64,000 bases of DNA from a virus. The notes under the pieces are model-generated. The model saw only the letters and a program-made list of their open reading frames with translations. It did no database searches and was not told the origin of the DNA. The DNA is taken from positions 1 through 64,000 of the IMG/VR virus record IMGVR_UViG_3300044680_000048; one strand, written 5' to 3'. Each line of letters starts with the position of its first letter. The first letter of the stretch is position 1. A program made the translations under genes and the position numbers. Below, one piece after another: positions 1-64,000 of this stretch.

Positions 1-127
1 AGTACATATTTAAACACTTTGGAAAGAATAAATAATGAACCTTAGGGAAAGAATAGAAGAAATTATTGCCGGAATATGGATAACACTTGAGTACATATTT
101 AAACACTTTGGAAAGAATAAATAATGA
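1..127 (+). repeat. 38-bp perfect direct repeat, copies 1-38 and 90-127 (period 89 bp)
   Basis: AGTACATATTTAAACACTTTGGAAAGAATAAATAATGA read at both positions; each copy spans a stop/start junction (..EYIFKHFGKNK, TAA overlapping ATG). Confidence 0.95.
35..124 (+). CDS. hypothetical small protein (29 aa); C-terminal 11 aa encoded by the repeat
   Basis: ATG 35, TAA 122-124, TAATG overlaps at both ends; below ORF-track cutoff. Confidence 0.3.
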   Translation: MNLRERIEEIIAGIWITLEYIFKHFGKNK

Positions 128-450
128 GCATTATAATTGATGAAGAAAGAATATTAAAGGACGTTCCGGAAAGGCTTAAGGCTGCTTTTGAGAAAAAGGA
201 AATGACTCCAGTAATACTTTCCCAAGGAGCTAGTCTTAATTTTAGACTTGATCTTTTCTATGATGTAATGGGGGAAGTTCAGGACCCAGATATTAGTTTC
301 AAGACTTATGATGATATCTTGGCTGCCAAAGTTGGTAGTAATGCAATATTGCCGTTTGATGGATCAGCTTTCCAATACGTTAAAGATTTAGAAAAAAGAG
401 TCTGGGAATTAGAATTCCAACTTCATATGCAGGAGGTTAGTGAGTTTTGA
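124..450 (+). CDS. hypothetical protein (108 aa)
   Basis: ORF track; ATG overlaps upstream stop (TAATG); first of a tightly packed co-directional array. Confidence 0.65.
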   Translation: MSIIIDEERILKDVPERLKAAFEKKEMTPVILSQGASLNFRLDLFYDVMGEVQDPDISFKTYDDILAAKVGSNAILPFDGSAFQYVKDLEKRVWELEFQLHMQEVSEF

Positions 451-1229
451 GTAAACAATTAGCAATAGTATCTCCCGTGGCGGATTTAAAGATATATTCC
501 AAAGACCTTCTTATAAATCTTCTAAATTCAATAGTTGAGGGGAAGACCTATGAAATTGCCGAAGTTATAATCTGCTTTGATGGGTGTCAAGAGAATTTCA
601 TAGATTTCTTTAGAGAGAAATTCCCGTTTATCCAAGCTATTGTCAATCCGGGAAAAAGACTAAACTTCTCTAAGAATAGTAATTTAGGGTTAAGATATGC
701 CCATAAAGAATTAAGGCTTCCGGTTCTCTTAGTTAATCAGGACTGTATTCTTCCGGCAAAAGAGCATATAGAAAAGCTTATAAACCCACCGGAAGTAGGA
801 ATAGTTACTCCTGAGACTACTACTCAAGTAGATGACCTCTTGAATAATAAAGAGGTAATCTTTACGGAAACTCAAGGATTATTTGCCTTTTATTGTCCCT
901 TTATCCCTCTAGAAGTAATGGATGAGATTGGATACATAGATCCAGGGTCTATAGCCTTCAGCGATGATAATTATTTAGTTAGAGCCTATCTTGCCGGATT
1001 CAAGGGTTATATCTGCAATATCAAGATACATCATGCCGGAAGCCATGTAGATCAGAATCAAATTGGTAGTAGCCTTTGTGGTTCTTATACAGGAGACCGG
1101 TTAAATATAGACCACCAAAGATTCTGTACTCAATGGCAGATAGACCCAAATAAAGTAGTCCATAAGGAGTATATCGCCCATATCCTAAAGAACTTTAAAT
1201 GGAATAAGGAGTTAATGTATGTCCATTAA
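447..1229 (+). CDS. glycosyltransferase-like protein (GT-A/GT2-like, tentative)
   Basis: 260-aa ORF, TTG start overlapping upstream TGA, AGGAGG 11 nt upstream; N-terminal beta-alpha-beta-like IVSPV..., acidic SDDNY motif; family call by eye only. Confidence 0.5.
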   Translation: MSKQLAIVSPVADLKIYSKDLLINLLNSIVEGKTYEIAEVIICFDGCQENFIDFFREKFPFIQAIVNPGKRLNFSKNSNLGLRYAHKELRLPVLLVNQDCILPAKEHIEKLINPPEVGIVTPETTTQVDDLLNNKEVIFTETQGLFAFYCPFIPLEVMDEIGYIDPGSIAFSDDNYLVRAYLAGFKGYICNIKIHHAGSHVDQNQIGSSLCGSYTGDRLNIDHQRFCTQWQIDPNKVVHKEYIAHILKNFKWNKELMYVH

Positions 1230-1506
1230 GATGGAATTTATTAAGGAGTTAGATAGTCTTCGGGCAGACGCTTACAATAAAGGACAAGTCTATTACAACA
1301 ATGACCACTATGTAGGGCATGAAGAAGAAGTCTATGAATGGGAAGAGTTCTATGAAAAATCTTACCAAGAAGATTATCAGAAATTTATTGACAAGTACAC
1401 TGGTGGAGAATACACCTTAGTTAAGACAGAGAAGTTAGAGATTCTCCATCGTTTAAATGTTGAGGGAATTGACTGTTCTTCCATTATCGCAGATTTGGAG
1501 AGTTAA
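1219..1506 (+). CDS. hypothetical protein (95 aa)
   Basis: ORF track; AAGGAG 7 nt upstream of ATG. Confidence 0.65.
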   Translation: MSIKMEFIKELDSLRADAYNKGQVYYNNDHYVGHEEEVYEWEEFYEKSYQEDYQKFIDKYTGGEYTLVKTEKLEILHRLNVEGIDCSSIIADLES

Positions 1507-1507
1507 G

Positions 1508-2074
1508 GTGACTTGTATTATAGGCTGGGGAGATGGGGATAGAGTAGTAATAGGTGGAGATTCTGCCGGAGTTTCTGGTTATGATGTTACTATCATGAAT
1601 AATCCTAAAGTGTTCAAATTAGGACCTTATGTTATTGGGTTTACTACATCCTTTCGAATGGGTCAATTATTACAGTATAACCTTTACCCTCCTGATCATC
1701 CAGAAAGTCAAAATGATATTGAACATTTAGTTAAAAACTTTATACCCGCTTTGAGGTCTTGTCTCAAAGAGCATGGATTCAGTAAGATAGATAATAATGA
1801 AGAATCCGGCGGAAGATTCATAGTAGGGTATAAGGGAAGAATCTATACCATTGAATCAGACTTTATGGTAGGAATCCCTTCTAAGGGTTATGATTCAGTA
1901 GGTTGCGGCTACAATGTGGCTTTAGGAGCTATGGATGCCCTACTAATCCCCTACTCAGAAGAATTTCAGGGATATGAAATTTTAAGAATTATGAGATTAT
2001 CCTTAGATATCGCAGCTGAACGTTCAGGAGGAGTAGCTCCTCCTTATGTATTTGAGGAGATGGTTAATGATTAA
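1508..2074 (+). CDS. HslV/proteasome-beta-like Ntn hydrolase (Thr-1 peptidase family)
   Basis: GTG at 1508, 2 nt after upstream stop, GGAG 8 nt upstream, gives M-TCIIGWGDGDRVVIGGDSAG.. (Thr at position 2). HslV-like blocks are present: VVIGGDS, KVFKL..VIGF, SVGCGYNVALGA, SLDIAAE. The track's ATG at 1457 would bury the nucleophile. Confidence 0.7.
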   Translation: MTCIIGWGDGDRVVIGGDSAGVSGYDVTIMNNPKVFKLGPYVIGFTTSFRMGQLLQYNLYPPDHPESQNDIEHLVKNFIPALRSCLKEHGFSKIDNNEESGGRFIVGYKGRIYTIESDFMVGIPSKGYDSVGCGYNVALGAMDALLIPYSEEFQGYEILRIMRLSLDIAAERSGGVAPPYVFEEMVND

Positions 2075-2458: not shown

Positions 2459-2464
2459 TTTGTG

Positions 2465-4413: not shown

Positions 4414-4529
4414 AAGGGGCTGCTGCTGCTGCTAATGCTGCTGCTAGAGATAAAGAAAGGGAATGGCAAATCAATACATTAATAGACCTGATACAAGGAG
4501 TTCCGGAACATTGCAAATCCTTGAAGTAA
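4410..4529 (+). CDS. small Ala-rich protein (39 aa), paralog of the 10945 and 12055 C-terminal module
   Basis: ATGA coupling to upstream ORF; MKGAAAAANAAARDKEREWQINTLIDLIQGVPE aligns with ..AAADARDKVLSDFAEDVVQTLIKLKTPG.. (10945) ; below track cutoff; overlaps 4463 ORF. Confidence 0.4.
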   Translation: MKGAAAAANAAARDKEREWQINTLIDLIQGVPEHCKSLK

Positions 4530-5407
4530 CTTCTACCTTAATGAAGAGTAACGGTCTTGCCGTTCATCTTCAATCAAAAGTTGATAATGGGTATGCCCAA
4601 GAGAATACTCATCTAGTCTATGATGACTATTGCGGGAAGAGGTATATAGTTAACCGGAAACTCAATCCCGATAACCCTTGTTGGAAAGGTTTGCCGGAAG
4701 ACCTAGAAGAATTTGAAATGCCTTCCGCCCAAGAGGTAGTAGAACAATTTAAACCTCTATTCAAAGACCTTAAGCTAGTATTCCACAAGACTACACCTAG
4801 ACAAGGAATATCTAAAGCTAAGAATGTAGGTCTTCTTTATGCTGTAGAGAACAACTTTGATAGAGTAATGCTCTGGGATGATGATATTGAATTAATCAAG
4901 CCAGGACTCTATGAAGAATTAGAAGAGATTTCGGAAAAGAATAGAGGGCTTCCCCACATTACTGGAGTCTGGACAGAGGATAAAGCCTTTGAGAAACAGC
5001 AAACTCAAGGAGGAACTTGGACTGATAACTTTCCCGTAGAGGCGGAAGGGTATGGTATAACATGGCATGGCGGAAGCCATGGATGTGCTTCTTGGTTTAA
5101 GGTTGACTTAATCAAAGAAGTAGGCTACTATCCGCTGATGTCCGATCTTTACGGATTCGAGCATTCCCTAATGACTGCCCGCTGTATGAAATATATAGGA
5201 TTAACTCCTAGATGGCATCCACAGCATAAAACTTCTTATCGGTATTACATCGGGCAAAAACAGCCCATCCCAAATAATTATTTTGATACGGGTGAATCAA
5301 TTAAGAAAAATGATATTGACTATAACCGCCTCTTTCCTTTAATATGGCAGGGACGGGAAGTTATTAATAAGAATCACGGAATTAACTGGAAGGAGTATAA
5401 TGACTAA
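4463..5407 (+). CDS. glycosyltransferase-like protein (start uncertain: 4463 or 4541)
   Basis: 314-aa ORF; ISKAKNVGLLYAV..DRVMLWDDDIEL resembles the GT-A nucleotide-binding/DxD region; by-eye call. Confidence 0.55.
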   Translation: MANQYINRPDTRSSGTLQILEVTSTLMKSNGLAVHLQSKVDNGYAQENTHLVYDDYCGKRYIVNRKLNPDNPCWKGLPEDLEEFEMPSAQEVVEQFKPLFKDLKLVFHKTTPRQGISKAKNVGLLYAVENNFDRVMLWDDDIELIKPGLYEELEEISEKNRGLPHITGVWTEDKAFEKQQTQGGTWTDNFPVEAEGYGITWHGGSHGCASWFKVDLIKEVGYYPLMSDLYGFEHSLMTARCMKYIGLTPRWHPQHKTSYRYYIGQKQPIPNNYFDTGESIKKNDIDYNRLFPLIWQGREVINKNHGINWKEYND

Positions 5408-5786: not shown

Positions 5787-5958
5787 AATAAACTTAGATT
5801 TAGTGTGGAACCTTCTCCGAGGTACAGTAACCCTATCTAACACTGATGGAGAACATTGTGCTATTGGTAAAATCTGTGCCGGAATCAAAGGGAAACCCCT
5901 TGAAGGTAAAAACTATGATAGTCTTCCGGCAAAGGTAGAAGAAAAATGCAGGAGTTAG
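5779..5958 (+). CDS. hypothetical protein (59 aa), GEHCAIGK motif family
   Basis: ATG 5779, TAG 5956-5958; just below track cutoff; overlaps both neighbours by a few codons. Confidence 0.4.
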   Translation: MYKINLDLVWNLLRGTVTLSNTDGEHCAIGKICAGIKGKPLEGKNYDSLPAKVEEKCRS

Positions 5959-7273: not shown

Positions 7274-7496
7274 AAAAGAACAATTCTTAAGTAATCTTCT
7301 TAGGTTAACAGAACAACTTAAAGTAGGTACAGCCCATGAAGAGCATAAGGCTCAGTTGGAGATTGAAGGAAAGATTCCCGAAAACGAATCTCACCCTGTG
7401 GGTTCCCGCATGATTATCTGCGGGCAAGAAATTGAGGAAATGGGCAAACGTTGGCAGGTTGCCGGAAGGGCTCTAGAGAAACACAAGAGGGATTAA
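7143..7496 (+). CDS. hypothetical coiled-coil protein (start uncertain, 7143 or 7206)
   Basis: ORF track; helical, heptad-like sequence from MKEQLQEVEASIEQ. Confidence 0.5.
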   Translation: MKTLIHKRKMIGTKQSKSYKPMKEQLQEVEASIEQMLWNRLEVKKEQFLSNLLRLTEQLKVGTAHEEHKAQLEIEGKIPENESHPVGSRMIICGQEIEEMGKRWQVAGRALEKHKRD

Positions 7497-9414: not shown

Positions 9415-9747
9415 ATGGAAAACAATAAAATAAACTGCTTCCGGCAAGGTGATGTTCTTATAGTTAAAATAGAAGAGCTTCCGGCAAACCTTAAACCAGT
9501 TAAACCCACCAAGGTAAGACCAAATCAACATGTTTTAGCATGGGGGGAGTCTACTGGAAATGCACATGCATTAGACGTTAAGGAGTCAAATCTTTTAGAA
9601 ACTCCGGAAGGAGTAAGGTATCTTCAAGTCTTAGAGAGAGCTTACTTGAAACATGAGGAACATCATACTATTGACATTCCTAAGGGAAACTATAGAATAG
9701 TTCAACAAGTTGAGTACCAAAAGGAATTTAGACCGGTAGTAGACTAA
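9415..9747 (+). CDS. hypothetical protein (110 aa from ATG 9415)
   Basis: AAGGAGGG upstream of ATG 9415; the track's TTG 9367 start is less likely. Confidence 0.6.
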   Translation: MENNKINCFRQGDVLIVKIEELPANLKPVKPTKVRPNQHVLAWGESTGNAHALDVKESNLLETPEGVRYLQVLERAYLKHEEHHTIDIPKGNYRIVQQVEYQKEFRPVVD

Positions 9748-9763: not shown

Positions 9764-10942
9764 ATGACTAAGATTAAAAAGTTGACCAACTGTCAAGAAC
9801 AGGATATGTTAATTTATAGAGAAATATGGTTAGATCAAGGAAGATCTACCGCTCCTCTAGACCTGTTAAGGGTTCAAGATTCTGTAAATGATTTATATTC
9901 TTTAATTGATCTAGAGGCTCCTGCTTTAGTCCATTGCCAGAGTCCTTGGCAAATGGCTTATATGGTTGCCAGTTTTAAGAAAATAGGCAAATTTGAAGGG
10001 AATAATCTAAGGAATAATCTATGGAATAATCTAGGGAATAATCTAAGGAATAATCTAGGGAATAATCTAAGGAATAATCTATGGAATAATCTAGGGAATA
10101 ATCTAGGGAATAATCTAAGGAATAATCTAAGGAATAATCTATGGAATAATCTAGGGAATAATCTAAGGAATAATCTAGGGAATAATCTAAGGAATAATCT
10201 ATGGAATAATCTAAGGGATAATGAATTAGACAAAGAGTTCGCCCAATTTGCAAAAGATTCACATAATTATTGGACGTTCTATTCTCAGTGGTACTTATAC
10301 TGGCTTTCTTTTTATGACTTTCCCCGCTCTATTGGAATTAAATATACGGAAGAAGAGAATAAACAGTTAGACATTTGGCTGGAAGTTTCCAGGTCTGTAT
10401 TTGGGTGTGCAACCTATGAGGGCATCTGTTTTGTTTGTGAACGTCCAACTACTTTAACTGTGGACGCCCAAGGAAGATTGCATAATGAATTAGGACCAGC
10501 TTTAGCCTTTTCGGACGGATATGAGTTATATTATTGGCATGGTATTCAACTCTTGCCGGAAGATTATTCTAAACCTCTTGAAGTAAAGAGAATTGATAAT
10601 GAATCTAATGTAGAAGTTAGAAGAGCATTAATTGAAAAATATGGTCAAGCTAAATATCTCTTAGACTCAGGAGCGGAAAAGCTTCATGAAGATGACTTTG
10701 GAGTACTTTACCGGAAACAGTTAACTGGAGATGAGTCGATCTTTATGGTAAAAGTAGTAAATAGTTCGCCGGAACCAGATGGAAGTTTTAAGGATTACTT
10801 CTTAGGGATTGATCCCAAAGCTTATAGGGATGCTAGTAAAATAACCGCTAAAGCAGCAGTAGCTAGTACTTGGAGATATGAAGGAAATACGGAATATGTT
10901 TTCCCGAATCCTGAAGATTATATTCCTCTAGTAGAGACTTAG
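9764..10942 (+). CDS. repeat protein: N-domain + 18 x NNL[R/W/G] tetrapeptide repeats + conserved C-terminal domain
   Basis: 392-aa ORF, AGGAG 10 nt upstream. The C-terminal region (CERP..LHNE.GPAL.FSDG..YWHG...NVEVRR..IEKYG..) recalls, from memory, a bacterial family of unknown function with period-4 repeats. Confidence 0.8.
   Translation: MTKIKKLTNCQEQDMLIYREIWLDQGRSTAPLDLLRVQDSVNDLYSLIDLEAPALVHCQSPWQMAYMVASFKKIGKFEGNNLRNNLWNNLGNNLRNNLGNNLRNNLWNNLGNNLGNNLRNNLRNNLWNNLGNNLRNNLGNNLRNNLWNNLRDNELDKEFAQFAKDSHNYWTFYSQWYLYWLSFYDFPRSIGIKYTEEENKQLDIWLEVSRSVFGCATYEGICFVCERPTTLTVDAQGRLHNELGPALAFSDGYELYYWHGIQLLPEDYSKPLEVKRIDNESNVEVRRALIEKYGQAKYLLDSGAEKLHEDDFGVLYRKQLTGDESIFMVKVVNSSPEPDGSFKDYFLGIDPKAYRDASKITAKAAVASTWRYEGNTEYVFPNPEDYIPLVET
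10001..10216 (+). repeat. 18 tandem 12-nt units AATAATCTA[A/T/G]GG
   Basis: Read directly: 11 of 12 nt are invariant in all 18 units and only position 10 varies. Order is R W G R G R W G G R R W G R G R W R; 60-nt higher-order copy 10001-10060 = 10121-10180. Confidence 0.97.
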
Positions 10943-12054: not shown

Positions 12055-12984
<930 letters not shown>

Positions 12985-13535: not shown

Positions 13536-13823
13536 ATGACAATCAAAGAAGCAATTTTAGGATATTTAACTATTAATTGCTGGGACAGTAAACACTCTAT
13601 TAATTCGGGCGTTAATAGTAAGTTTGGGCATAAAGTAGGATCTATACAGATAGATGAAGAATTAGACAAATTGACAAAAGAGGGATTGATTGTCTTTAGT
13701 CAGGTAAAGTTAAATAACCTAAGAGACACAAAAGGATATCAGACACAATTTCATAGAATTTGGAGATTAGCGAATAAAAACTCCAGCTACGTAGAATTAT
13801 TAACCTTTGCCGGAATGGTATAA
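13536..13823 (+). CDS. possible winged-helix DNA-binding protein (95 aa)
   Basis: GGGAGG upstream; ..EELDKLTKEGLIVFSQ.. helix-wing-like pattern; weak by-eye call. Confidence 0.55.
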   Translation: MTIKEAILGYLTINCWDSKHSINSGVNSKFGHKVGSIQIDEELDKLTKEGLIVFSQVKLNNLRDTKGYQTQFHRIWRLANKNSSYVELLTFAGMV

Positions 13824-15972: not shown

Positions 15973-16155
15973 GTGTATGAATTGATTCTGCGTTGCGGGA
16001 AAACTGGTGAAACTATGTCCCCAGTAGTAATTTGCCGGAAGCACTTGTGGGATATCCCACTCAGCGGGCAAGATCTATTCTACGAGTCTGACGCTATTAC
16101 TAGTAATAGCGAGTTGTGTGAGTTTTGCATTCCAGAAATAGCTCTTAACAATTAG
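15973..16155 (+). CDS. hypothetical Cys-containing protein (60 aa), GTG start
   Basis: ORF track; see the finding on the start-less ORF 15785-15987. Confidence 0.45.
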   Translation: MYELILRCGKTGETMSPVVICRKHLWDIPLSGQDLFYESDAITSNSELCEFCIPEIALNN

Positions 16156-17305: not shown

Positions 17306-17334
17306 TTGACAAGTCTTGCCGGAAGGTATAAGAT
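17306..17334 (+). promoter_or_regulatory. sigma70-type promoter (TTGACA-17-TAAGAT)
   Basis: TTGACA 17306-17311, TAAGAT 17329-17334; the spacer contains TTGCCGGAA. Confidence 0.55.
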
Positions 17335-18427: not shown

Positions 18428-19145
18428 GAAGTAGGCTCCTACTTGGTCAGGCAATCCCTACTACAACTTGTAGTTGTCAACCCTTTGTCAACAAATATTA
18501 CATTAGAAGAAATTAACTTGACAAATACAAAAATATCCAAGACGCTTTGCCTGGCTGTTCAATTATGGTTTATAGTAGAATGTGCCCTTGCGGATGAACT
18601 TATATAGTGTAGTAAGCAGCGTCTTACTATTCCGGCAAGACAGTTTATTACTGTCTATCTTAGTAGGGTGAACGTCTTGGTTATGTGCTCGTTCTCGCCT
18701 GGAATGACTCCAGGAATCCCCATACACATTATTGTATCAATTACAAGTTATATATCTCTTATTTTGATGTTCCGGTCATCTTAGTATTGCCGCAAAGGCA
18801 ATACAGTATTACAATACAGAGCATTTGCCTTATACGGCGTCTTTTAGATGTTCTGCTTATGAGTACACCTTACCGGAAGATAGTTTATTAGAGACGCCTA
18901 GCAGGCGCCACAAGCTTATTACCTCTACTAGTAGTAGCTATTAGTTGTATTAGTAGGGCTAGAGGTATTATTTAACTTGACTTGCCGGCAAAGCAGTAGT
19001 AGGTTGACAAACCTACTACTATGTGGTAGATATCTACTGCCTTACCATACATCATCTTACTGTGTGTATGTATTGCCGGAAGGCAATACTATATCTGTAT
19101 GTGGTATATTGGAATAGTAAGGCACAAGACAAAGAGGGACCGGCA

Positions 19146-19424: not shown

Positions 19425-19454
19425 ATGCCGGAAAGACATTCCGGCATTATTTAT
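19425..19454 (+). terminator. intrinsic terminator built from an inverted GCCGGAA word pair
   Basis: ATGCCGGAA (19425-19433), loop AGACA, TTCCGGCAT (19439-19447), then TATTTAT. Confidence 0.65.
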
Positions 19455-24286: not shown

Positions 24287-24479
24287 AGAATTCCTTCCTT
24301 TCTGTTTTAGTGAGGCTATTTTCCCAAGCTATATCCATTAAATTTCCTAACTGTTTTTGAACTTTCCGGACTTCTTCAATAAAGCTTGCCGGAAGATTAA
24401 CATTCTGATGAAATAGTTCCAATACATCATTAGAACAAGATACTCTTTCATAAATAGGAATCCAATCTTTTTTAACCAT
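24276..24479 (-). CDS. hypothetical protein (67 aa)
   Basis: ORF track. Confidence 0.55.
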   Translation of the reverse strand: MVKKDWIPIYERVSCSNDVLELFHQNVNLPASFIEEVRKVQKQLGNLMDIAWENSLTKTERKEFFGE

Positions 24480-27249: not shown

Positions 27250-27443
27250 TTTCTATACTCATCCATATTAATAACATTCTCTTCCGGTCGGACTATTACT
27301 ATTTCATTTACTACAGAGGCATCTACTAGCTCATAAAGAAGGAGGGAAAAGATCTCCTTATTGTAGATTGAATCTTCATCCAGTGTAACAGATTCTAGGA
27401 GTAAAGGGAGCTGTAATCTAAGATCCTTTAATCTAACCTTCAT
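27246..27443 (-). CDS. hypothetical protein (65 aa from ATG 27443)
   Basis: The track's longer start (27530) would overlap rmlB by ~100 nt; the internal ATG overlaps by 11 nt. Confidence 0.45.
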   Translation of the reverse strand: MKVRLKDLRLQLPLLLESVTLDEDSIYNKEIFSLLLYELVDASVVNEIVIVRPEENVINMDEYRK

Positions 27444-46233: not shown

Positions 46234-46853
46234 TATGTTCTATCCGCCTGTTCTAGGTTGAGGATACAAATATTATCCTTATAATCTACTAGGGTAATTT
46301 GCCATACATCATTGGACCCAACTCCAGGAGTTTGGTCTATTAATTTCATCCCTTCAACTATTCCGGCACGTTTATAAATTACTGCTCTTTTAGTAGGAGT
46401 ATTGAGGGAAGTAGTTTGAGCAGGAAAAGTATCCCTTCCGGCAATGAGATTAATGGAATACTCAAATAGGACATTAGAGTATATAGTATTCTGTCCATCA
46501 GTAATACTTCCGGTTTTAGTAGTCTTAAATCCTAGAAATTGATGCATTTCTGGGACTTGTAGCATGGTCATTACCGGAAAGTCATTAGTGGTGGTTTCTT
46601 GGATTATATAACCAGGAGAGAGGGAAGTTCTATCCCCACAGACTATGAATAACTCCATATCTCTATACTTATCTTGGGCAAATTTATCATTACAAGCTTC
46701 TACATGAAGCTTTCTTCCCGTCAAGTAGGGTTGAGGAGTTCCGTCCACCCTAGTGTATATGGGGGAAGAGATATTCCAATAGTAATCCCCGCCTGCCAAT
46801 TTGGCAGTCATTATCTTATAGGTATACTCTATTCGGCTTAGGCGGTTAGACAT
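46233..46853 (-). CDS. virion structural protein (206 aa)
   Basis: ORF track. Confidence 0.5.
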   Translation of the reverse strand: MSNRLSRIEYTYKIMTAKLAGGDYYWNISSPIYTRVDGTPQPYLTGRKLHVEACNDKFAQDKYRDMELFIVCGDRTSLSPGYIIQETTTNDFPVMTMLQVPEMHQFLGFKTTKTGSITDGQNTIYSNVLFEYSINLIAGRDTFPAQTTSLNTPTKRAVIYKRAGIVEGMKLIDQTPGVGSNDVWQITLVDYKDNICILNLEQADRT

Positions 46854-48126: not shown

Positions 48127-48690
48127 TACTACTAATGTTATTTTAGTATCTGCGGCAGTCTTACGACTACCCACCACCAACTTTCGTCGATGGGGCCTAA
48201 GAGCAAGTCTTAGGGTGGATTTCCTTCTACGTTATTCCGGCTAGTTACTTAAAACTCTCCATCGGTATACCCCAAGGGACCAAGAATAACGGCTTATGAA
48301 GGAAGTTAAATGAAGAAGGGGTTCGAACCTTTAGTTTCCCTTAAAGAAACTCCTTAATCATTTAATTACTCTTCCGGCAAGATTTTACTTGCATCTTCCT
48401 CTGTACAATCGAGGGCTTTAATTAAGCGACGGAAGTTAGATTGTCTTCCACGGTGGTCACGATCATTACCTACCCTGAAGACTTTGTAGGTTATCAACCT
48501 ACAACTTAAAGTTGATTTCCGAAATAAGAACGTCATATCAACTTAATAGCTAGATATTTTAGTACTACTATTTAGCTATCTTGGGGGGAAGAAGTACGCA
48601 GAATTCTGTTCCCTCTTCCTTGTATATTTATTTTACCATACCTTTCCGGAAGTTACAATCTCAAAAGTGTTAAATTTTTAGGAGAAGAAG

Positions 48691-49071
48691 ATGAAACGAC
48701 CGGAAGGTTACTTTGGAAAACTACTAACAGTAGATTTTCTAGGTATAAGATCTGAACTCCTAGTAGATAAAGAGTTAATGGCTGAGGTTTCCCGTCAAGT
48801 TATTAGTCTTGCGGCAATGACCATAATACAAGGTCCAGACATTTTCTATTATGAGCACCCAACAGACCCATTAGAGAGTGGACTTACCGGATGTACTATC
48901 CTCTCAGAAAGTCACTTCACATTTCACTCGTTCCAGAGAAGCGGGTTCCTAACCCTAGATCTGTATAGCTGTTCAGATTTTATTCCGGAAACAATTATAA
49001 GTTACCTAAAGGGTGTATTTAACCCAACTTCAATGGAAACTAATGTTCACCTTAGAGGGAAGGGATACTAG
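48691..49071 (+). CDS. speD: S-adenosylmethionine decarboxylase proenzyme (small pyruvoyl type)
   Basis: ..GLTGCTILSESHFTFHSF...LTLDLYSCS.. aligns with the ..VISESHLTIHTWPE...IDLFTCG self-cleavage and active-site core. Confidence 0.8.
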   Translation: MKRPEGYFGKLLTVDFLGIRSELLVDKELMAEVSRQVISLAAMTIIQGPDIFYYEHPTDPLESGLTGCTILSESHFTFHSFQRSGFLTLDLYSCSDFIPETIISYLKGVFNPTSMETNVHLRGKGY

Positions 49072-49493
49072 GGTTTAATAACTCCTGCTTCTAGTTCGTC
49101 TCTTGTATATTCTATTTGTTCATCAATAAGTCCTGGGTCATAATAAGGTTCCGGAAAGTTAATTAATTTAACTGTTTGAGAATATGTATTGTAGATGCCT
49201 ACAGCTATTCCCGTAGGAATATGTAGAGTACCACCAGTAGCTAAAACGTACTCTTTGGGTCCTGGTATACCTGGTTTGAAGAGAGTTACCTTTGCTGTTC
49301 CTTCTACACAGACATAATTAGAAGCTCTAATCTTATGTAGGTGAAACCCCTTGAAACAGTAGGGCTTAACGGTAGTCAAATAGGCTACTGTATGCTCCCC
49401 GTCTTTCTTTAATTCCATTAACTCACCATTAGTGAGATAGCCGGAAGAGTAGGTAATAACCTGCTTAGCCCAGCCAAGTTTTCCAAATTCCAT
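49068..49493 (-). CDS. RmlC-like cupin (sugar epimerase/ketoisomerase-like)
   Basis: 141 aa; KGFHLHK...YVCVEGTAKVTLF...LHIPTGIAVG cupin motifs; by-eye call. Confidence 0.55.
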   Translation of the reverse strand: MEFGKLGWAKQVITYSSGYLTNGELMELKKDGEHTVAYLTTVKPYCFKGFHLHKIRASNYVCVEGTAKVTLFKPGIPGPKEYVLATGGTLHIPTGIAVGIYNTYSQTVKLINFPEPYYDPGLIDEQIEYTRDELEAGVIKP

Positions 49494-49495: not shown

Positions 49496-49762
49496 TTATC
49501 TAACCTCTTGAAGCATACGTGCTAGACGGGGATGGCAATAATAACCTTCCTTTTCTAGTAAAACTTTAACAGCAAGAAGGGCGTCATGTCCATTCATTAG
49601 ACGCTTATACTTCTCTAAAGGCATATATCTTACTTTACCCTTAATCTTGCCGGAAGTATTTCTTTTCTTGCTATTAAAGTTATTCCGGCACCTAATAGTG
49701 CAGTAGATATGAGCCGGATGTTTCATCTCAAACTGCCTTCCGCAATTGTCACAGATATCCAT
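49496..49762 (-). CDS. zinc-ribbon small protein (88 aa)
   Basis: CDNCGRQF...YCTIRC pattern. Confidence 0.55.
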   Translation of the reverse strand: MDICDNCGRQFEMKHPAHIYCTIRCRNNFNSKKRNTSGKIKGKVRYMPLEKYKRLMNGHDALLAVKVLLEKEGYYCHPRLARMLQEVR

Positions 49763-50899: not shown

Positions 50900-51220
50900 A
50901 TGGATGATAAATTTAAGCTTAAAAGAACTGGAACACCCTTATCCGAAATTTGGAGCATTTACTCTGGACCCACAGGTAGAAGCGACTACCTATTAAAAGA
51001 ATTAGAGGGTTTAGGATTTGATTCTGTGGAGAGGCTTTATAGTAGTATTATAGGGTCTCCCGAAGCTTTTCAAGTGTTTTTTAAAGTTCATGGGGAAAAC
51101 CTAAGTACCCTTATAGGGATACTTGAAGCGTATCTTCCCGTTTCTTTTATTAAAGAGGTTAAGGAGTATATAGCTCCTGAATATGGTATGGGTCTAGTCT
51201 TGCCGGAAGACTTTGGATAG
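50900..51220 (+). CDS. hypothetical protein (106 aa)
   Basis: ORF track; TTCAAA-17-TACTAT promoter-like sequence upstream. Confidence 0.6.
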   Translation: MDDKFKLKRTGTPLSEIWSIYSGPTGRSDYLLKELEGLGFDSVERLYSSIIGSPEAFQVFFKVHGENLSTLIGILEAYLPVSFIKEVKEYIAPEYGMGLVLPEDFG

Positions 51221-51555: not shown

Positions 51556-51767
51556 AGATTGAAAGATACGAGAACTATTATGGAGAGCAAGAGCTAACTT
51601 TCTGGTTTGGTAATAATTATTTCATGTTTGACTCCAAGGGTAACTTTGAATTCTTAGCTGCAGGTTATGGTAGTGGTTATGAAGTTGTTCCAGATATAAC
51701 TAAACGGGACACACTTAGCAAAGAAGAACGGGAAATCCTTATTAAATTCCTTCAGGAGATTGAATGA
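51552..51767 (+). CDS. hypothetical protein (71 aa)
   Basis: ATGA coupling. Confidence 0.55.
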   Translation: MKIERYENYYGEQELTFWFGNNYFMFDSKGNFEFLAAGYGSGYEVVPDITKRDTLSKEEREILIKFLQEIE

Positions 51768-52246
51768 AAGGACAGAAGCAAGTATTCTCTAGTACATATC
51801 AAAATTGGGAGACTCCTAAACCTTTATTTAATAGGTTACATGAAAGATTTAATTTTACTATAGATCTTGCCGCAAGCCCTGATAACCATCTATTACCTAG
51901 ATTCTATACAGAAGAAGATAATTCCCTAATTCAATCTTGGGTAGATGAACGGGGGTTCACTAACCCTCCTTATAATATAGCTCCAGAATTCATTGAAAAG
52001 TCCTATATGGAAGTAGCTTATGGGTGTATGGAGTTGAATCTTTTATTGGTTCCGGCAAGAACTAGTAACAAAGAGTGGGAAGAATTTGTATTCCCTCATG
52101 CGGAGGAGTTGATTTTTATCAATGGACGTGTTAAGTTTGGTAATAGTCCAACCGGTGCTCCTTTTCCTTCTGTTTGTATACTCTTCCGGGAAGACAATTG
52201 CGGGAAAGGTCCTAAAGTCAGTTGGATATCAGTAAGAGGTGAATAA
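51764..52246 (+). CDS. dam: phage-type DNA N6-adenine methyltransferase
   Basis: ..YQNWETPKPLF..FNFTIDLAAS..N.....YTEEDNSL...W....FTNPPY (NPPY catalytic motif); ATGA coupling. Confidence 0.82.
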   Translation: MKGQKQVFSSTYQNWETPKPLFNRLHERFNFTIDLAASPDNHLLPRFYTEEDNSLIQSWVDERGFTNPPYNIAPEFIEKSYMEVAYGCMELNLLLVPARTSNKEWEEFVFPHAEELIFINGRVKFGNSPTGAPFPSVCILFREDNCGKGPKVSWISVRGE

Positions 52247-52317: not shown

Positions 52318-52578
52318 ATGAAACGGGAAGATTTTAAAATTGGAGAACAGTTTTATACAGGTTCCGGAAGATGGATATGTACAGATAAAGGTACTAAGAA
52401 TATACTAGCAATAAAGACGGAAGACCATTCCGGCAAGGCTCTTTTAAGTAATCAAGACTGGGAATGGATTAAGGGGAAACATGAAGACATGCTTCATGTT
52501 TCAATCTTCCATATTAATGATTGGGATGGATGTTCCTTAAAGAATGATTGGGCTAATAGAGTAAGGCGGGAAAGATGA
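52318..52578 (+). CDS. hypothetical protein (86 aa)
   Basis: ORF track; AGGAAAG upstream. Confidence 0.55.
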   Translation: MKREDFKIGEQFYTGSGRWICTDKGTKNILAIKTEDHSGKALLSNQDWEWIKGKHEDMLHVSIFHINDWDGCSLKNDWANRVRRER

Positions 52579-53964: not shown

Positions 53965-56139
53965 TTACTGTTGGGCCCAATTGGCCATGATGAAACTGTC
54001 TAGTGTGTTTGCCGGTTGAGTAGCTTTATTTACTTCAACAGCTTTGTTCTGGATCTCAAGAACTTTTTCTACAAGTTCTTCCGCACTGGTGGAAGCAGCG
54101 GCTTCTACAGCCTTACTAATTGATTCGACCATTTTGGCAAGCTCCCCAATCAGTTTTGATTGATCAGCCTGGATTGATTTCTGTGCTTCTACAGCAGCGA
54201 CAAGCTTGTTGACTTTTTCAACAGCTTCCTTGTTAGAAGCAACAAGAGACTTTATTGTTAGGTTGGTTTCCGGAGAGAGTGAAGCTTCTACAGATTTACC
54301 AAGCTTTACGGAAGTCGGATCTTTATCTTCCGATTTTCCTAGTTTGACGGAAGTAGGGTCACTATCTTCGTTAGTAATTTTCTTAGTGTCGTTATCACCG
54401 TCGCGGTCTTCACCGCCAACACCCTCATCACCATCAGGTTCTTTGTGGGCCTTAACACACTCATCATCTTCTTCAGACTTCATGCACTCATCTTCTTCAG
54501 CAGAAGCTTTAGTGGAAACATCTTCGTACTTAGAAGGATCAGCATCACCGGAACCCGGATTTAGCTTAACCGCATCTTTTTCTTCTTTTGCCACTGATTT
54601 ACTATCCTGTATAGTGTTAACGTTAATTATTGTAGCGGAGGATTTATTTTGTGTTAAATTATCTCTCAAAGAAGAGGCATGAACATTTAGAAGTGTCCCA
54701 AAAGCCTCATAAGAATTAACTGCCCCTTCTGGCAATTCCATATTATGTGTCCAGATGGTAGGGCGTTCAGCAGATTTAGCAGCTTCAAGACGATGATGAC
54801 CATCAATCATATAGATATCTCCATTGCGGGAGATAGTCATTCCACCATCAAAATTTCCTTCTTTAACAAATTGTGCAACTTTTTCTGCGTCTACGGCAGA
54901 CTGAGTTGGTTTAACTTGTTCCGGACGAACCTGAACAAGGGGAAGACCCTTATATAATCCTGGATTACTAATCAATGCCTTAACAACAGAAAACTCAAAT
55001 TCACTTTTAAGAAAGTCTGGATACAGGGTTTTATTGATGGATTCTGTTAAAGATTTCTGTTCAGGAGGTCCGGAAGAATCTATTTCTCTTTTCCAAGCAG
55101 CCTTAATCTTAGATTTTATATGAGAAAGTTCTTCAGAGGAGTACTCTGAAGAATTCCTTTCTTGATGAATGTAATTCCAAGCTGCTCTGATGTGCTCTTC
55201 TGTATCTATAGGATAACGAGGTTTTTTATCTTCCTGGTAACCAGGATCTGCGTATTCTACATCCCCATAAGGTTTTTTCGCTTTCATCATTGCTGCTTCA
55301 GGAGCATTATCACACTCATGAGCATTATCTTCCGGTTCATCTCTATAGGCTTCTGGATCAGTAACTCCACCACCATTAGGGGGAGAAATAGTAGCTTTAT
55401 CCTCAAGGGCTTTTTGTTGAAGAGATTTGATTGCGGTTTTCATTCGAGCGGGAACATTTACAACCGATCTTTCTAGGTAGCGGGCAACTTTATTAATAGT
55501 TACTGAAACAGGTTTGCCGGATTCATCCACCTGTCCCGGTTCATGTGGGCAGGCATAAGAATAAATAGACATGTTACAGGAACTACAAACTTTATGGTTG
55601 GGGTCTACTAAAATACCTACAGAAATAGAACGAACAGTACCGTTTTTTATTCCTTTTATAAGAGGAGCATGGTAATCCTCAAGAGGAATGCCCCATGTTT
55701 CTCTAGGACCTTCTTTAGTCATCCTAGAAGAAAGGCAGATACCTAATGGAGGGAGATTATTAAGATTATGTGAATGATCCATGAGGACGGGAGTAGCTGG
55801 TCCACCGTCTACTATGTCCTGTTCAGCATCTTTGGAGAACTTATCTCCTTGTACATCAACCTCATTTCCAAGGCCTAGAACGTTAATATTACGTAAAACC
55901 ATCCACTGGTGGGCTTCTTGGGGCACAACAGAAAATTCATTAATGAGTTTCATTTCTTCCATAGAAGGAGATAAACTTTGATTCTCCTCTACCATTGTCT
56001 TAGCAGCTTTAAGAGTTCCGGTACTTCCCATACTCTTATACATAACTAAGCCGGTCTCTTCTTCAGGTTCCGGCAAAGACTTCTTGATAGAAACTGCTCT
56101 TACTTCTTCCGGAAGGACTTTTTTAAATTCTTCTACCAC
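53965..56139 (-). CDS. prohead protease (HK97/S78-like) - ParB/Srx-like domain - acidic linker - coiled-coil scaffold fusion (724 aa); GTG start uncertain
   Basis: Protease block ..PVLMDHSHN..PPLG...GTVRSISVG; YADPGYQ..KPRYPIDT..HIRAA motif; ParB-like ..VRPEQVKPTQ...IDGHHRLEAAK (about 54740-54950); Asp/Glu-rich linker; helical C-terminus. Confidence 0.72.
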   Translation of the reverse strand: MVEEFKKVLPEEVRAVSIKKSLPEPEEETGLVMYKSMGSTGTLKAAKTMVEENQSLSPSMEEMKLINEFSVVPQEAHQWMVLRNINVLGLGNEVDVQGDKFSKDAEQDIVDGGPATPVLMDHSHNLNNLPPLGICLSSRMTKEGPRETWGIPLEDYHAPLIKGIKNGTVRSISVGILVDPNHKVCSSCNMSIYSYACPHEPGQVDESGKPVSVTINKVARYLERSVVNVPARMKTAIKSLQQKALEDKATISPPNGGGVTDPEAYRDEPEDNAHECDNAPEAAMMKAKKPYGDVEYADPGYQEDKKPRYPIDTEEHIRAAWNYIHQERNSSEYSSEELSHIKSKIKAAWKREIDSSGPPEQKSLTESINKTLYPDFLKSEFEFSVVKALISNPGLYKGLPLVQVRPEQVKPTQSAVDAEKVAQFVKEGNFDGGMTISRNGDIYMIDGHHRLEAAKSAERPTIWTHNMELPEGAVNSYEAFGTLLNVHASSLRDNLTQNKSSATIINVNTIQDSKSVAKEEKDAVKLNPGSGDADPSKYEDVSTKASAEEDECMKSEEDDECVKAHKEPDGDEGVGGEDRDGDNDTKKITNEDSDPTSVKLGKSEDKDPTSVKLGKSVEASLSPETNLTIKSLVASNKEAVEKVNKLVAAVEAQKSIQADQSKLIGELAKMVESISKAVEAAASTSAEELVEKVLEIQNKAVEVNKATQPANTLDSFIMANWAQQ

Positions 56140-56203: not shown

Positions 56204-56282
56204 AGTAGGGTAGGGGAGTCTGGTCGTCCCCGCAAGGCTCATAACCTTGAGATCGTGAGTTCAAATCTCACCCTTGCAACCA
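56204..56282 (+). tRNA. tRNA with CAU anticodon (Met; Ile2/initiator not excluded), encoded CCA
   Basis: Hand-folded cloverleaf. Acceptor 56204-10/56272-78 has 6 of 7 pairs with an A1xA72 mismatch. D stem GGGG/CCCC. Anticodon stem CAAGG/CCTTG with loop CTCATAA. Variable loop AGATC. T arm GTGAG-TTCAAAT-CTCAC. Discriminator A plus CCA. Confidence 0.78.
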
Positions 56283-57221: not shown

Positions 57222-58061
57222 CTAAAAGCTGCCCCTTAAGGTTTCATAGGCTAACTCATATCCATGGTTTATTAGGGACTTCCGGTCCTTCTTATAGTTA
57301 AAGTCTATTAAATTACGCTGAATATTACTCTCTGCCTTTACTACTATAACTTTAACCTCTCTAAACCGAGAGTTGGTAGATACTATGGAGTTGATTGTCT
57401 CAACAAATTTAAGTTCTTTCGATATGGAGATATAAGACGGTAATGATAAACCAGCCTGCATTACATCTAAAATACTGTTTATCTTGTAACAAGTCTCCGG
57501 CACTTGAGGTTGAAACAAGACAACAACATCGGCGCCCATTTCTACTGCCTGAGAAACCGAGAAGTTATTACTTAGCCCACCATCTAGGTATTGTTGACCA
57601 TTAAGAGAAACAGGCTCAAATAAAACTGGAGGTGAAGCAGATGCTCGTAAGAACGCCGGCAAGTCTTCTCCTAACTCATGAACGTCTTTAGTAACACCGC
57701 TCCAATCTGTAAAATTAGTAACGTTAATTAAGAATTTCTTAGGGTTTCCGGCAACTTTACCATTATCTATATATTTCTTTAATGTTCTTTCCAGAGGAGA
57801 AGAGTCGTATAAACAGAACTTACCGGAAAGAAAGTTACCAAATGGGTTTAAACTATAAACATCCGGATTCTTAATATTCATCCACAGATCTAGCATTTCA
57901 TCTATTCTATTTTGATGAAGAAAAAGACCATTCAGGCTACCAACGGAAGTTCCATGAAGAACGTCATAAGTAAGTCCTAATTCATGCCAAGCTTTAATCA
58001 TCCCGGCTTGTAGGATGCCCATTGAACCGCCGCCGGAAAGACATAGGTGGATATTAGACAT
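57222..58061 (-). CDS. patatin-like phospholipase
   Basis: All four patatin blocks are present: SGGGSMG (oxyanion hole), GTSVG (GxSxG nucleophile), ASASPP, YLDGG (catalytic Asp). Confidence 0.85.
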   Translation of the reverse strand: MSNIHLCLSGGGSMGILQAGMIKAWHELGLTYDVLHGTSVGSLNGLFLHQNRIDEMLDLWMNIKNPDVYSLNPFGNFLSGKFCLYDSSPLERTLKKYIDNGKVAGNPKKFLINVTNFTDWSGVTKDVHELGEDLPAFLRASASPPVLFEPVSLNGQQYLDGGLSNNFSVSQAVEMGADVVVLFQPQVPETCYKINSILDVMQAGLSLPSYISISKELKFVETINSIVSTNSRFREVKVIVVKAESNIQRNLIDFNYKKDRKSLINHGYELAYETLRGSF

Positions 58062-62838: not shown

Positions 62839-62839
62839 C

Positions 62840-63244
62840 TTACGGAATATCTCCTACTACTTTTATTGTGGCAGGGTTTGCCGGATCAGGATTAGAAATT
62901 ACAAATCTTACCCACCTAGGAACCATGTAACAAAGTACTTCAATAAAGTCTGTATTGGTTAAACTAGAGCCGGAAGAAAGTTGATAAGTAGTTGCGCCTG
63001 TCTCATATATAGGTACGTTACTTCCTCCTATTACTATAGGAAGGGTTCCATTAGCGGTTGGGTCACTATTGCCGCAACCTGCATAACAATTTACTACCAG
63101 ACCAGAAGCCAGAAGAGAGGCATAGGTAGCACTTACGCCAATTGTTACTGGACTATTTTGGAAATTAAAAGTGTCTACATCGAAAGTATAACTGCCGCTA
63201 GCTGCGAGAGTTGAAACAGGAACAATTATCTGAAAATTGGACAT
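62840..63244 (-). CDS. beta-rich small virion protein (134 aa), distant paralog of 56611..57033
   Basis: See paralog; immediately upstream of the fibre gene. Confidence 0.55.
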   Translation of the reverse strand: MSNFQIIVPVSTLAASGSYTFDVDTFNFQNSPVTIGVSATYASLLASGLVVNCYAGCGNSDPTANGTLPIVIGGSNVPIYETGATTYQLSSGSSLTNTDFIEVLCYMVPRWVRFVISNPDPANPATIKVVGDIP

Positions 63245-63370
63245 TTATTGTCCCTTTTTCTTCTTTTTTTTCTTTTCCGATTTAGGTTTATCAAGCCCTT
63301 TAGCAAGGAAAATCAGTTCCGTAGATTCTGACTTCTGCACTTCAGCAACTTTTTTATCAGTATTAATCAT
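63245..63370 (-). CDS. hypothetical small protein (41 aa) with poly-Lys tail
   Basis: Hand translation MINTDKKVAEVQKSESTELIFLAKGLDKPKSEKKKKKKKGQ; TAAATG junction. Confidence 0.45.
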   Translation of the reverse strand: MINTDKKVAEVQKSESTELIFLAKGLDKPKSEKKKKKKKGQ

Positions 63371-63401
63371 TATATATCCTTAAGAGACACCTGAATTGTA
63401 A

Positions 63402-64000
63402 CTAGATATCTTGGTATGGAAGAGTATCAATTACAGCTTCTTCCCCTACTGGTAGTTTCATAGGAGTTGCCGGAGGTACTACTTCAGAAGCAACTGAGAT
63501 ATTGGGAAGAACCCTTAGAGGTTTCTTACCAGCAGTTCCACCTAGAGGAGGAAGTTTAGCTATTTCAGTTCTGGCTTCATCAACAGACATAAATCCATCC
63601 AATTTACCAATATCAACTAAGGACTTAGCCATATTCATAGTAAAGGAATTGAATCTATCCCTTGCCCGAATCTGTACGTCTTTTATTCCGGCTCTGGGAA
63701 GGATTTCAGAATTAATGAAATTATCAACTATCTTAACTACTTGATAGATAGCTTTATCAAAGATATCAGCAGCTTCATCAGCAAGAGAAGCAGCATGGTA
63801 TTGCTGATTAGCATTAGTAATAATTCCTAAACGTTCATGGGGGACACCCATTACATGAGCAACCTGTTTAGCAGCTTTATCAGAAGTTTTGTGGAAGGCT
63901 CCATCTAAGTCAGCCAGATTATTCATCTGTTTAATATCACGGGCACCCGTAAGGACTACAGTATCAAATCCGGCTCTGGCTCCAGAATGGTTTGCCCGAA
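63402..64000 (-). CDS. portal protein, C-terminal part (ORF continues beyond the window end)
   Basis: The frame stays open upstream of Met 63926 to position 64000; ..HVMGVPHERLGII...Y....L.....F......V...F.N.EILP resembles the HK97-type portal C-terminal region. Confidence 0.6.
   Translation of the reverse strand, partial: RANHSGARAGFDTVVLTGARDIKQMNNLADLDGAFHKTSDKAAKQVAHVMGVPHERLGIITNANQQYHAASLADEAADIFDKAIYQVVKIVDNFINSEILPRAGIKDVQIRARDRFNSFTMNMAKSLVDIGKLDGFMSVDEARTEIAKLPPLGGTAGKKPLRVLPNISVASEVVPPATPMKLPVGEEAVIDTLPYQDI

Follow-up and report, generated by a model that had tools for sequence, protein, structure and literature searches.

An asymmetric, highly iterated word with a CCGG core in the genome of an uncultured tailed phage

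Highly iterated words, such as the highly iterated palindrome (HIP) HIP1, its alternates, and the uptake sequences, are a conspicuous and unexplained feature of bacterial genomes, over which repair and selection have been argued for decades. The function of HIP1 itself is debated in terms of biased repair, selection, and DNA uptake: its retention above background between related genomes has been argued to reflect selection (Xu et al. 2018, PMC5861425), and a role as an uptake signal has lately been suggested for it. Cyanobacteria without HIP1 over-use GGCGCC, rCCGGy, or GCsGC at about 1-2 copies per kb, with HIP densities ranging from 1000 to 2000 per Mb, each word being found beside a cognate methyltransferase (Elhai 2015, PMC4390886). 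According to the same study (PMC4390886), the rCCGGy type is seen in Oscillatoria sp. PCC 10802, where the word is asymmetric (tGCCGGTg/cACCGGCa), GCsGC in Cyanothece PCC 7822, and GGCGCC in Calothrix PCC 7103; further, CGATCG is not enriched outside HIP1, and the one-off variants of HIP1 deviate mainly at the outer positions. Here, we describe a word of this general kind in a virus. In the IMG/VR record IMGVR_UViG_3300044680_000048, positions 1 to 64,000 of which were analyzed (hereafter the window, representing 64 kb of the ~112-kb genome of an uncultured tailed phage), the 9-mer TTCCGGCAA is about 100-fold more frequent than expected by chance, irrespective of strand and reading frame. We tentatively read it as a HIP-type, methylation-linked iterated word whose reader would most likely be a host system, a reading that we prefer while according it somewhat less than even confidence.

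The window contains 15 copies of TTCCGGCAA on the + strand (751-759, 2566-2574, 5924-5932, 9439-9447, 9479-9487, 18630-18638, 31575-31583, 37216-37224, 43664-43672, 46436-46444, 48372-48380, 52050-52058, 52428-52436, 56068-56076, and 57746-57754) and 17 of its reverse complement, TTGCCGGAA, that is, TTCCGGCAA on the - strand (66-74, 4691-4699, 7459-7467, 10553-10561, 13807-13815, 16032-16040, 17316-17324, 19073-19081, 24386-24394, 32706-32714, 34063-34071, 36269-36277, 38026-38034, 40751-40759, 44970-44978, 49647-49655, and 51200-51208). Together, these 32 copies compare with 0.31 expected and a maximum of 2 in 100 dinucleotide-preserving shuffles, in agreement with the estimate of the initial annotation that such a 9-mer and its complement should occur well under once in 64 kb. 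Its tallies by eye, 14 and 15 copies, were rightly offered as minima, as they had missed those at 57746, 16032, and 34063; likewise, its figure of at least 14 copies for a related palindrome accords with the 16 copies of TTCCGGAA counted here (starting at 164, 4501, 12343, 21501, 27487, 31693, 44166, 45766, 46071, 48644, 48983, 49149, 52362, 53574, 56107, and 56976). The 7-bp core TCCGGCA/TGCCGGA is present in 73 copies versus 2.7 expected, CCGG in 285 versus 99 expected at zero order, and the half-words TTCCGG/CCGGAA in 176. The G+C content of the window is 39.7%, a little above the ~38% given earlier, and its DNA is CpG-poor, with an observed/expected ratio (O/E) of 0.56 for CpG, one-fifth of all CpGs lying inside CCGG. 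The word persists, at 0.76 seven-mers per kb, in a Logan contig (L251) that extends the window 9.2 kb rightward in the same phage and brings the sequence covered to 73 kb of the ~112 kb.

Several controls place this excess at the level of DNA. Shuffling synonymous codons within genes leaves 2.3-3.3 expected copies of the 9-mer versus 31-32 observed (z ~20), codon permutation leaves 1.6 versus 32, and a shuffle that also keeps the dinucleotides at codon junctions, and which mixes poorly, leaves 15.8 versus 31 (z 6.9); the enrichment thus survives the dinucleotide, synonymous, codon-permutation, and junction-preserving nulls. When all k-mers (k = 6-9) were ranked without bias against the synonymous null, the top ranks were occupied exclusively by this word family, with TCCGGCA at 70 versus 10.5 and TCCGGCAA at 45 versus 4.6. 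Under the same control, the enrichment rises with length, from x1.6 for CCGG through x3.8 for the 6-mer and x7.5 for the 7-mer to x14-17 for the 9-mer. For the 7-mer, all six frame/orientation classes show a 4- to 15-fold enrichment, including the frame nTC-CGG-CAn that uses the rare Arg codon CGG (7 versus 0.5 expected), and CCGG reaches 3.4/kb in non-coding DNA, as compared with 4.5/kb overall. Because all six frames are enriched and the non-coding copies are similarly dense, we are dealing with a DNA-level word, and its enrichment is a property of the double-stranded DNA, selected or created there, rather than of peptides or codon usage. Codon usage and a peptide repeat are ruled out as its source by the synonymous shuffles, the codon permutation, and the per-frame analysis; the initial annotation had likewise held the word not to be a peptide repeat and had correctly stated the codon phases of the copies at 751, 9439, and 52428. 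The word itself dictates codon choice and overrides the genome-wide avoidance of CpG: NCN codons end in C in 32% of cases before GG versus 13% before other G-initial codons, the base following the codon CCG is G in 67%, and the base preceding the codon CGG is C in 45%.

These controls also bear on the explanation that the word passively follows from codon usage like that of a host, from codon-pair bias, or from generic context-dependent mutation at ~40% G+C, with no reader involved. Closely spaced pairs of the 9-mer were sought in IMG/VR and in 185,579 species genomes, and the statements that follow apply to the matches listed. These are taxonomically scattered, and many of them are tandem peptide repeats; none of the 120 listed for the species genomes comes from a genome with multiple matches. 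A CCGG O/E of 2-5 and similar top words (TGCCGG, GCCGGA, and TTCCGG) do occur in many fragments of 38-47% G+C from bacteria and viruses, as a passive origin would have it. However, synonymous shuffling accounts for most of the excess in these fragments, leaving x1.3-2, and only a few small ones come near the excess in the window, which retains its full x7.5 (7-mer) and x14-17 (9-mer) after equal control. As other fragments are left with x1.3-2 once codons are controlled for, a signal of this strength is peculiar to the phage lineage and does not represent a generic signature of ~40% G+C DNA. Moreover, the rare-codon frame and the non-coding copies share in the enrichment; relatives of the phage picked regardless of the word are CpG-poor (CpG O/E 0.30-0.60) but without an excess of CCGG (CCGG O/E 0.7-1.3); and a generic mutational bias with a 9- to 11-nt context is implausible. 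The passive-composition reading is thereby largely refuted, and we consider it improbable.

The anatomy of the word sets it apart from its own core. Alignment of the copies yields the consensus C-TTCCGGCAA-R, or Y-TTGCCGGAA-G when read from the complementary strand; C occupies position -1 in 22 of the 32, and the 11-mer CTTCCGGCAAG is found in 10 copies. The word acts like a weight matrix, in that one-off variants at positions 1 and 9 are still enriched 5- to 9-fold, the inner positions accept C/G swaps alone (e.g., TTCCGCCAA, x11), and words of the form TT-S5-AA number 61 versus 9.1 expected. Among the NCCGGN hexamers, measured against the synonymous null, GCCGGA/TCCGGC (x3.8) is the sole strongly enriched class; the others are ACCGGA/TCCGGT (x1.8), TCCGGA (x1.7), CCCGGC/GCCGGG (x1.4), ACCGGC/GCCGGT (x1.2), CCCGGA/TCCGGG (x1.0), ACCGGT (x0.8), ACCGGG/CCCGGT (x0.5), and GCCGGC (x0.5), the last being nearly absent, with 3 copies in the window. 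The enriched unit is an asymmetric 9- to 11-mer and not bare CCGG. In this respect, the CCGG-centered palindrome family of the initial annotation has to be narrowed, since ACCGGT, ACCGGG, and GCCGGC do not exceed expectation. Palindromic forms are rarer than TTCCGGCAA, with TTCCGGAA at 16 copies and TTGCCGGCAA at 1. A full palindrome, CTTGCCGGCAAG, that had been placed at 18979-18990 does not occur; its nearest counterpart, CTTGCCGGCAAA at 18981-18992, agrees at 11 of 12 positions, represents the single TTGCCGGCAA of the window, and has no stable fold.

The word is enriched, instead of depleted as a target of restriction avoidance would be. Separately, a number of 6-bp palindromes are avoided in the window relative to the synonymous null, namely, GGATCC (0 observed/13.5 expected), GAGCTC (0/7.5), CTGCAG (1/16.7), GGTACC (2/11.9), and ATCGAT (2/11.6), with GGCC, TGCA, and TCGA also low. 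This restriction-avoidance fingerprint may be of use in tracing the host.

Outside positions -1 to +10 of the aligned copies, there is no conservation in the flanks, and for this reason the word is not a mobile repeat: in contrast to dispersed repeats such as miniature inverted-repeat transposable elements (MITEs) or repetitive extragenic palindromic (REP) elements, the conserved sequence stops at the core. The same evidence applies to the suggestion that the word is an artefact, i.e., an assembly chimera, or the core of a MITE/REP-like element, for which the raw copy number speaks and nothing else. The copies lie in intact open reading frames and in all frames, three independent Logan contigs from a separate sample (SRR35360315) match the window at 100% identity wherever they overlap it, and an ENA contig of a 94%-identical relative bears the same words. 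We therefore regard an origin of this type as negligible in probability.

With regard to orientation relative to transcription, 31 sense and 39 antisense copies are seen, i.e., there is no bias, and + and - copies are interleaved along the whole window without strand skew. A skew of the type displayed by Chi was accordingly rejected, as was even spacing or periodicity (coefficient of variation 0.77-0.84, P ~0.09, not significant). The copies are mostly intragenic and unoriented, which differs from the intergenic placement and fixed orientation of stoperators. Two non-coding hairpins, both of which had been noticed in the initial annotation, contain the word. One, at 19425-19447, comprises the inverted word pair ATGCCGGAA-agaca-TTCCGGCAT followed by TTATTTAT, constitutes a terminator-like structure (-13.5 kcal/mol, z -4.2), and sits between convergent + and - gene blocks. 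The other, at 19064-19094, has the form GTATTGCC-GGAA-GGCAATAC, with the TTGCCGGAA copy at 19073-19081 in its stem and loop (-14.4 kcal/mol, z -4.2). A single gene stands out for its lack of the word: 28694-31792 (- strand), encoding a 1032-aa product, contains 2 CCGG in 3.1 kb (0.65/kb versus 4.65/kb elsewhere) and has a CG O/E of 0.28. It has no Pfam or PHROG match and probably codes for a tail or host-recognition protein; it probably entered the genome only recently and has still to gain the word. This word-poor outlier fits accumulation of the word with time of residence.

The relatives of the phage show both retention and replacement of the word. In the 94%-identical relative (L253), word densities equal those of the window over the 7.4 kb compared, to which the analysis of single-nucleotide differences is confined because the 1446-aa gene yielded no close variant. 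Relative to expectations drawn from sequence windows of equal length, 7/7 of the 7-mer sites are kept (expected fraction 0.55, P 0.016), as are 8/8 of the 8-mer sites (0.52, P 0.005) and 33/39 of three 6-mers combined (0.59, P 0.0006), while bare CCGG is kept at 23/32 (0.69, not significant). Thus, the sites are kept above controls, as in the HIP class, a result that is suggestive, since the sites are few and the words overlap. More distant relatives were collected by their capsid protein and are hence unbiased with regard to the word; their word sets rest on ~20 kb each. Judged by its own synonymous null (observed/expected), L003 (73% capsid identity) over-uses TGCsGCA (12/2.0), GGCGCC (7/1.5), and GCsGC (38/17.8); L248 over-uses GCsGC (63/16.9), AGCsGCT (21/3.5), and AGCGG (57/21.9); L004 over-uses TGGCGGA (18/2.1), AGCGG (47/21.1), and likewise AGCsGCT; L005 over-uses TGCCGA (45/10.1) and TCCGGCA (15/2.0); L257 over-uses TGGCCA (10/3.1); and L249 has no clear over-used word. 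In these distant relatives, the word has been replaced by other GC-rich words, namely, GCsGC, GGCGCC, TGGCCA, TGCCGA, and TCCGCCA. The half-word TGCCG/TTGCCG is enriched in the window (x3.1), L003 (x2.1), and L005 (x3.9). As a separate observation, TCCGGA is absent from L004, L005, L248, L249, and L257 (~12 expected in total) and enriched x1.7 in the window, which suggests BspEI-type restriction pressure on the phage family that the phage of the window has escaped.

The HIP-type reading introduced above would make this word the phage counterpart of the bacterial highly iterated words, i.e., HIP1 and its alternates rCCGGy, GCsGC, and GGCGCC. Under it, a system combining sequence-specific cytosine methylation with repair or recognition would read a short core of the C5-methyltransferase type (CCGG) together with its flanks; this system would probably be that of the host and not the small methyltransferase-like gene of the phage. 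Methyl-directed biased repair, site selection, or both might then keep the word at about 1/kb. The dominance of the asymmetric form could have resulted from counter-selection of 6-bp palindromes that are restriction targets (GCCGGC and, in part, TCCGGA), and the lineage-specific words of the relatives would mirror the differing methyltransferase repertoires of their hosts. In keeping with the class, the word is hyper-abundant (9-mer 0.5/kb, 7-mer 1.1/kb) and enriched in every frame and in non-coding DNA.

A number of points weigh against this reading. Unlike the palindromes of the HIP class, TTCCGGCAA is not self-complementary. To our knowledge, HIP words have so far been encountered in cyanobacteria alone, and there is no indication that the host of this phage is a cyanobacterium. 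Neither is there a word-rich, host-like genome among the matches listed from the genome scan. The information in the word is spread over 9-11 positions, as reflected in the 10 copies of CTTCCGGCAAG, and would suit a reader of long sites more than a methyltransferase acting on 4 bp. The end state predicted by Elhai's model, GCCGGC, is nearly absent from the window, and the conservation test involves few, partly overlapping sites. Biased repair of the very short patch type (Dcm/Vsr) had to be rejected, in that the precursor words are not depleted (CCAG/CTGG 397 versus 428, TCTGGCA x1.2, TCCAGCA x1.5) and no Vsr was found in the 73 kb. Indeed, neither a PF00145-type or CCGG-specific methyltransferase nor Vsr or TET was detected in the 64-kb window or in its 9.2-kb extension, and no association with CCGG is seen for the family to which the small methyltransferase-like gene belongs.

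That gene, at 20854-21438 (- strand), had been linked to the word in the initial annotation, a link that its homologues do not favor. Its 194-aa product matches phrog_757 ("DNA methyltransferase") over its full length (E-value 1e-72) and has PPC and ENP motifs; no match was found in Pfam, NCBIfam, or PDB sequences (the last by means of a 4-sequence profile), and a single-sequence AlphaFold model was unusable (predicted local distance difference test score 32). Among phages of Prochlorococcus, Arthrobacter, Burkholderia, Acinetobacter, and Methanosarcina, members of the phrog_757 family share 54-59% identity. The closest cultured homologue of the gene product (59% identical) is that of the cyanopodovirus NATL2A-133 (cyanophage; L254, NC_016659.1), which has 0 CCGG in 47.5 kb versus 74 expected, with a G+C content (39.9%) and CG O/E (0.58) both near those of the window; Acinetobacter phage 5W and the gut phages carrying homologues have a neutral CCGG content. 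Because of this conservation across hosts and the zero or neutral CCGG of the carriers, the gene is a poor candidate for driving the word and, on such comparative grounds, is probably not its cause. The orthologue in L003 (L003:7327-7907) is split into two frames, reflecting an assembly error or else a frameshift (pseudogene), and this too entered into its rejection as the driver. The second of the two methyltransferase-like genes seen in the 73 kb, at 51764-52246 (+ strand), encodes a phage N6-adenine methyltransferase (Pfam Dam PF05869; phrog_111; TIGR01712 below cutoff). The Dam-type gene of the initial annotation is hence real, but nothing ties it to the word.

The spread of information over a long site and the words of the relatives bear directly on the main rival to the HIP-type reading, namely, that the word is phage-autonomous. 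A phage-encoded protein would read a 9- to 11-bp site that selection keeps at about 1/kb, and drift of its specificity among relatives would give rise to the variant words; a DNA-binding, modification, recombination, packaging, or genome-silencing factor could be envisaged, either in a stoperator/repressor-like pairing or in a denser, motif-specific protective modification fed by the deoxythymidine diphosphate (dTDP)-sugar genes. The growth of enrichment with word length and the 10 copies of the 11-mer are as expected of a long protein-binding site; the half-word TGCCG/TTGCCG is common to several relatives, whose words lie single bases apart (TTGCCGGAA, TTGCCGCAA, TTGGCGGA, and TTGCCGAtc); the extended words are kept in L253; and the x1.3-2 left in DNA of similar G+C after codon control assigns the strength of the signal to the phage lineage. 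In addition, nucleotide-sugar genes occur throughout the phage family, and phage clusters of C5-methyltransferase, TET, and glycosyltransferase genes with an NAD-dependent epimerase are described as hypermodifying cytosine at specific motifs (Burke et al. 2021, PMC8256090). On the other hand, the 73 kb examined yielded no candidate reader, TET, or repressor, the copies show no orientation bias and are mostly intragenic, unlike stoperators, L257 and L249 fall outside the TTGCCG series, phrog_757 is too conserved across hosts for lineage-specific words, and the spacing is not significantly more even than random. On balance, a phage-autonomous word is possible but rather unlikely.

A more specific version of this idea, which we hold to be doubtful, is that the phage lineage has a "self word" system of its own, in which a phage-encoded reader and a 9- to 11-bp word at ~1/kb genome-wide co-evolve between related phages. 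Such a reader might act in a dTDP-sugar-based protective modification, in self/non-self discrimination during degradation of host DNA, in recombination, or in packaging. If true, this would represent a HIP- or uptake-like phenomenon that belongs to the virus and is not inherited from the host. As to the sugar genes themselves, a dTDP-deoxysugar gene set is found at 19630-20727 (-), 27433-28404 (-), 49068-49493 (-), and 4463-5407 (+), its members being rmlA_long (above the NCBIfam cutoff), a dTDP-glucose 4,6-dehydratase-like gene, a cupin/FdtA-like gene, and one with a weak glycosyltransferase match. The relatives L003 and L005 have an NTP-transferase/FdtA or an epimerase together with a sugar C-methyltransferase. 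The phage family seems to make an unusual nucleotide sugar, the target of which could be DNA, the virion, or the host surface.

A further alternative retains the host as reader and dispenses with methylation: the word would be an uptake-like or Chi-like site recognized by an uptake receptor or by RecBCD/AddAB, which was gained by recombination with host-processed DNA or which protects injected or replicating linear DNA. Its anatomy equals that of the uptake sequences (uptake signal sequences, USS, and DNA uptake sequences, DUS) point by point, with a word of 9-12 nt at ~1/kb, equal orientations, and an inverted pair at a terminator. The initial annotation had already seen a resemblance to HIP1-type words and uptake sequences, and this is borne out in the orientations, the frames, the non-coding copies, the one-off variants, the inverted-pair hairpin, and the lineage-specific variants. 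Moreover, AGCGG, the Chi word of Bacillus subtilis, is among the words over-used in L248 and L004, and HIP1 itself has lately been put forward as a signal for uptake. Yet, the word differs in identity from AAGTGCGGT, ATGCCGTCTGAA, and the DUS variants, the commonly known sequences used in the comparison, and matches no known Chi; Chi works in one orientation and is strand-skewed, whereas the phage word is unskewed and quasi-palindromic. Gain through uptake is also hard to picture for a seemingly lytic phage (no integrase was seen in the 64-kb window), and no genome had multiple matches among the 120 listed. We therefore view a host-read word independent of methylation as unlikely, though not fanciful.

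The phage bearing the word is novel: no relative was detected among 50,697 cultured phage records by megablast or by tblastn with the major capsid protein, portal, and polymerase exonuclease domain, and an IMG/VR search with the capsid protein gave no match. The genes of the window include those for an SU10-like major capsid protein, lysozyme, peptide deformylase, S-adenosylmethionine decarboxylase, and patatin, besides the dTDP-sugar genes and a tRNA-Met (CAT; 56204-56282, + strand) inside the structural gene block. Among the genes in the extension beyond the window are that of the portal, one of 904 aa with an intein, and one of 946 aa, and L253 reaches 4.7 kb further right. The 904-aa gene (L251:4882-7596, ~2.3-5 kb past the right end of the window) adjoins the portal gene and has a Hint and LAGLIDADG intein; about 1 kb of it is absent in L253, and the intein is therefore polymorphic between close strains. 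Intein-bearing genes are present at the same place in L004 and L257, the latter also having one in its class II ribonucleotide reductase. Directly upstream of the capsid gene, a 724-aa protein (53965-56139, - strand) combines DUF6582 with a weak ParB-like nuclease match, and its homologues occupy the same position in all relatives. Two tandem arrays, both in frame, were also seen: one of 18.7 copies of 12 nt (9999-10222) inside a DUF6745 gene (9764-10942) and a GCT-rich one of ~39 copies of 9 nt (12502-12855) inside 12055-12984, to which the very high counts of GCTGCTGC are due.

More generally, this phage family offers a compact, ~110-kb system in which the iterated word varies by lineage, being CCGG-, GCsGC-, GGCGCC-, or GGCC-based, and in which one gene, apparently recently imported into the window, is still without the word. 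If the word mirrors the host, such phages become probes of a host process, with residence time to be gauged from its density and host range from its variant; if it is phage-autonomous, it would constitute a new kind of viral genome code. In uncultured phages, such words serve as strong markers with which to predict the host and to detect genes of recent import, and CCGG-based methylation or restriction assays will act very unevenly on such DNA.

Several described systems can be set beside the phage word. The stoperators of cluster A mycobacteriophages, ~13-bp asymmetric words whose variants co-evolve with a phage-encoded reader, similarly amount to ~30 dispersed copies of an asymmetric word in a phage genome; they differ in being intergenic and oriented with transcription, as opposed to the mostly intragenic, unoriented copies seen here, and no repressor was found in the 73 kb. 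Chi, for whose host versions some phages are enriched, is like the phage word a short, lineage-specific, over-represented word, and unlike it is orientation-dependent and strand-skewed. The likeness to the uptake sequences (DUS of Neisseria, USS of Pasteurellaceae) extends to the 9- to 12-nt core, the density of ~1/kb, the use of both orientations and all frames, the terminator-like hairpin of an inverted pair, the enriched one-offs, and the single-base variants in relatives, for Neisseriaceae lineages also carry single-base DUS variants; the difference is that the present word is phage-borne and matches no known DUS or USS. The hypermodification clusters recall the phage in that its C5-methyltransferase-like gene adjoins nucleotide-sugar genes, with an NAD-dependent dehydratase/epimerase and a glycosyltransferase-like gene elsewhere in the window. 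Their methyltransferases, unlike the small one here, are full-length and prefer GpC (PMC8256090), and motif over-representation is not described in the sections consulted; no TET was found in the 73 kb of the phage.

Of all these systems, the HIP words come closest. The phage word resembles HIP1 in its hyper-abundance, its presence in every frame, and its retention above background between relatives; it differs in sequence, with 0 copies of HIP1 (GCGATCGC) in the window, and in symmetry, HIP1 being a perfect palindrome tied to the methyltransferases DmtA and DmtC. The differences from the alternate HIPs are that the genome is that of a phage instead of a cyanobacterial chromosome, that the 73 kb yielded no cognate methyltransferase, and that the enriched hexamer, GCCGGA/TCCGGC, does not conform to rCCGGy; in Oscillatoria, furthermore, GCCGGC is over-represented, whereas in the phage it is nearly absent. 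Set against these differences, the phage word, like the alternate HIPs, is GC-rich and built on a core of the C5-methyltransferase type (at ~0.5-1.1/kb), occurs in all frames and in non-coding DNA, leaves its bare core unenriched outside the extended word, and varies in its one-offs at the outer positions; like the Oscillatoria word, it is asymmetric, with TGCCGG common to both. The CCGG core of the window corresponds to one alternate HIP (rCCGGy), and the relatives of the phage use the other two cores, GCsGC and GGCGCC. It is because of these same cores, the asymmetry with its shared TGCCG, the pattern of the one-offs, and the conservation above background that we read the word, with due reserve, as a HIP-type word.

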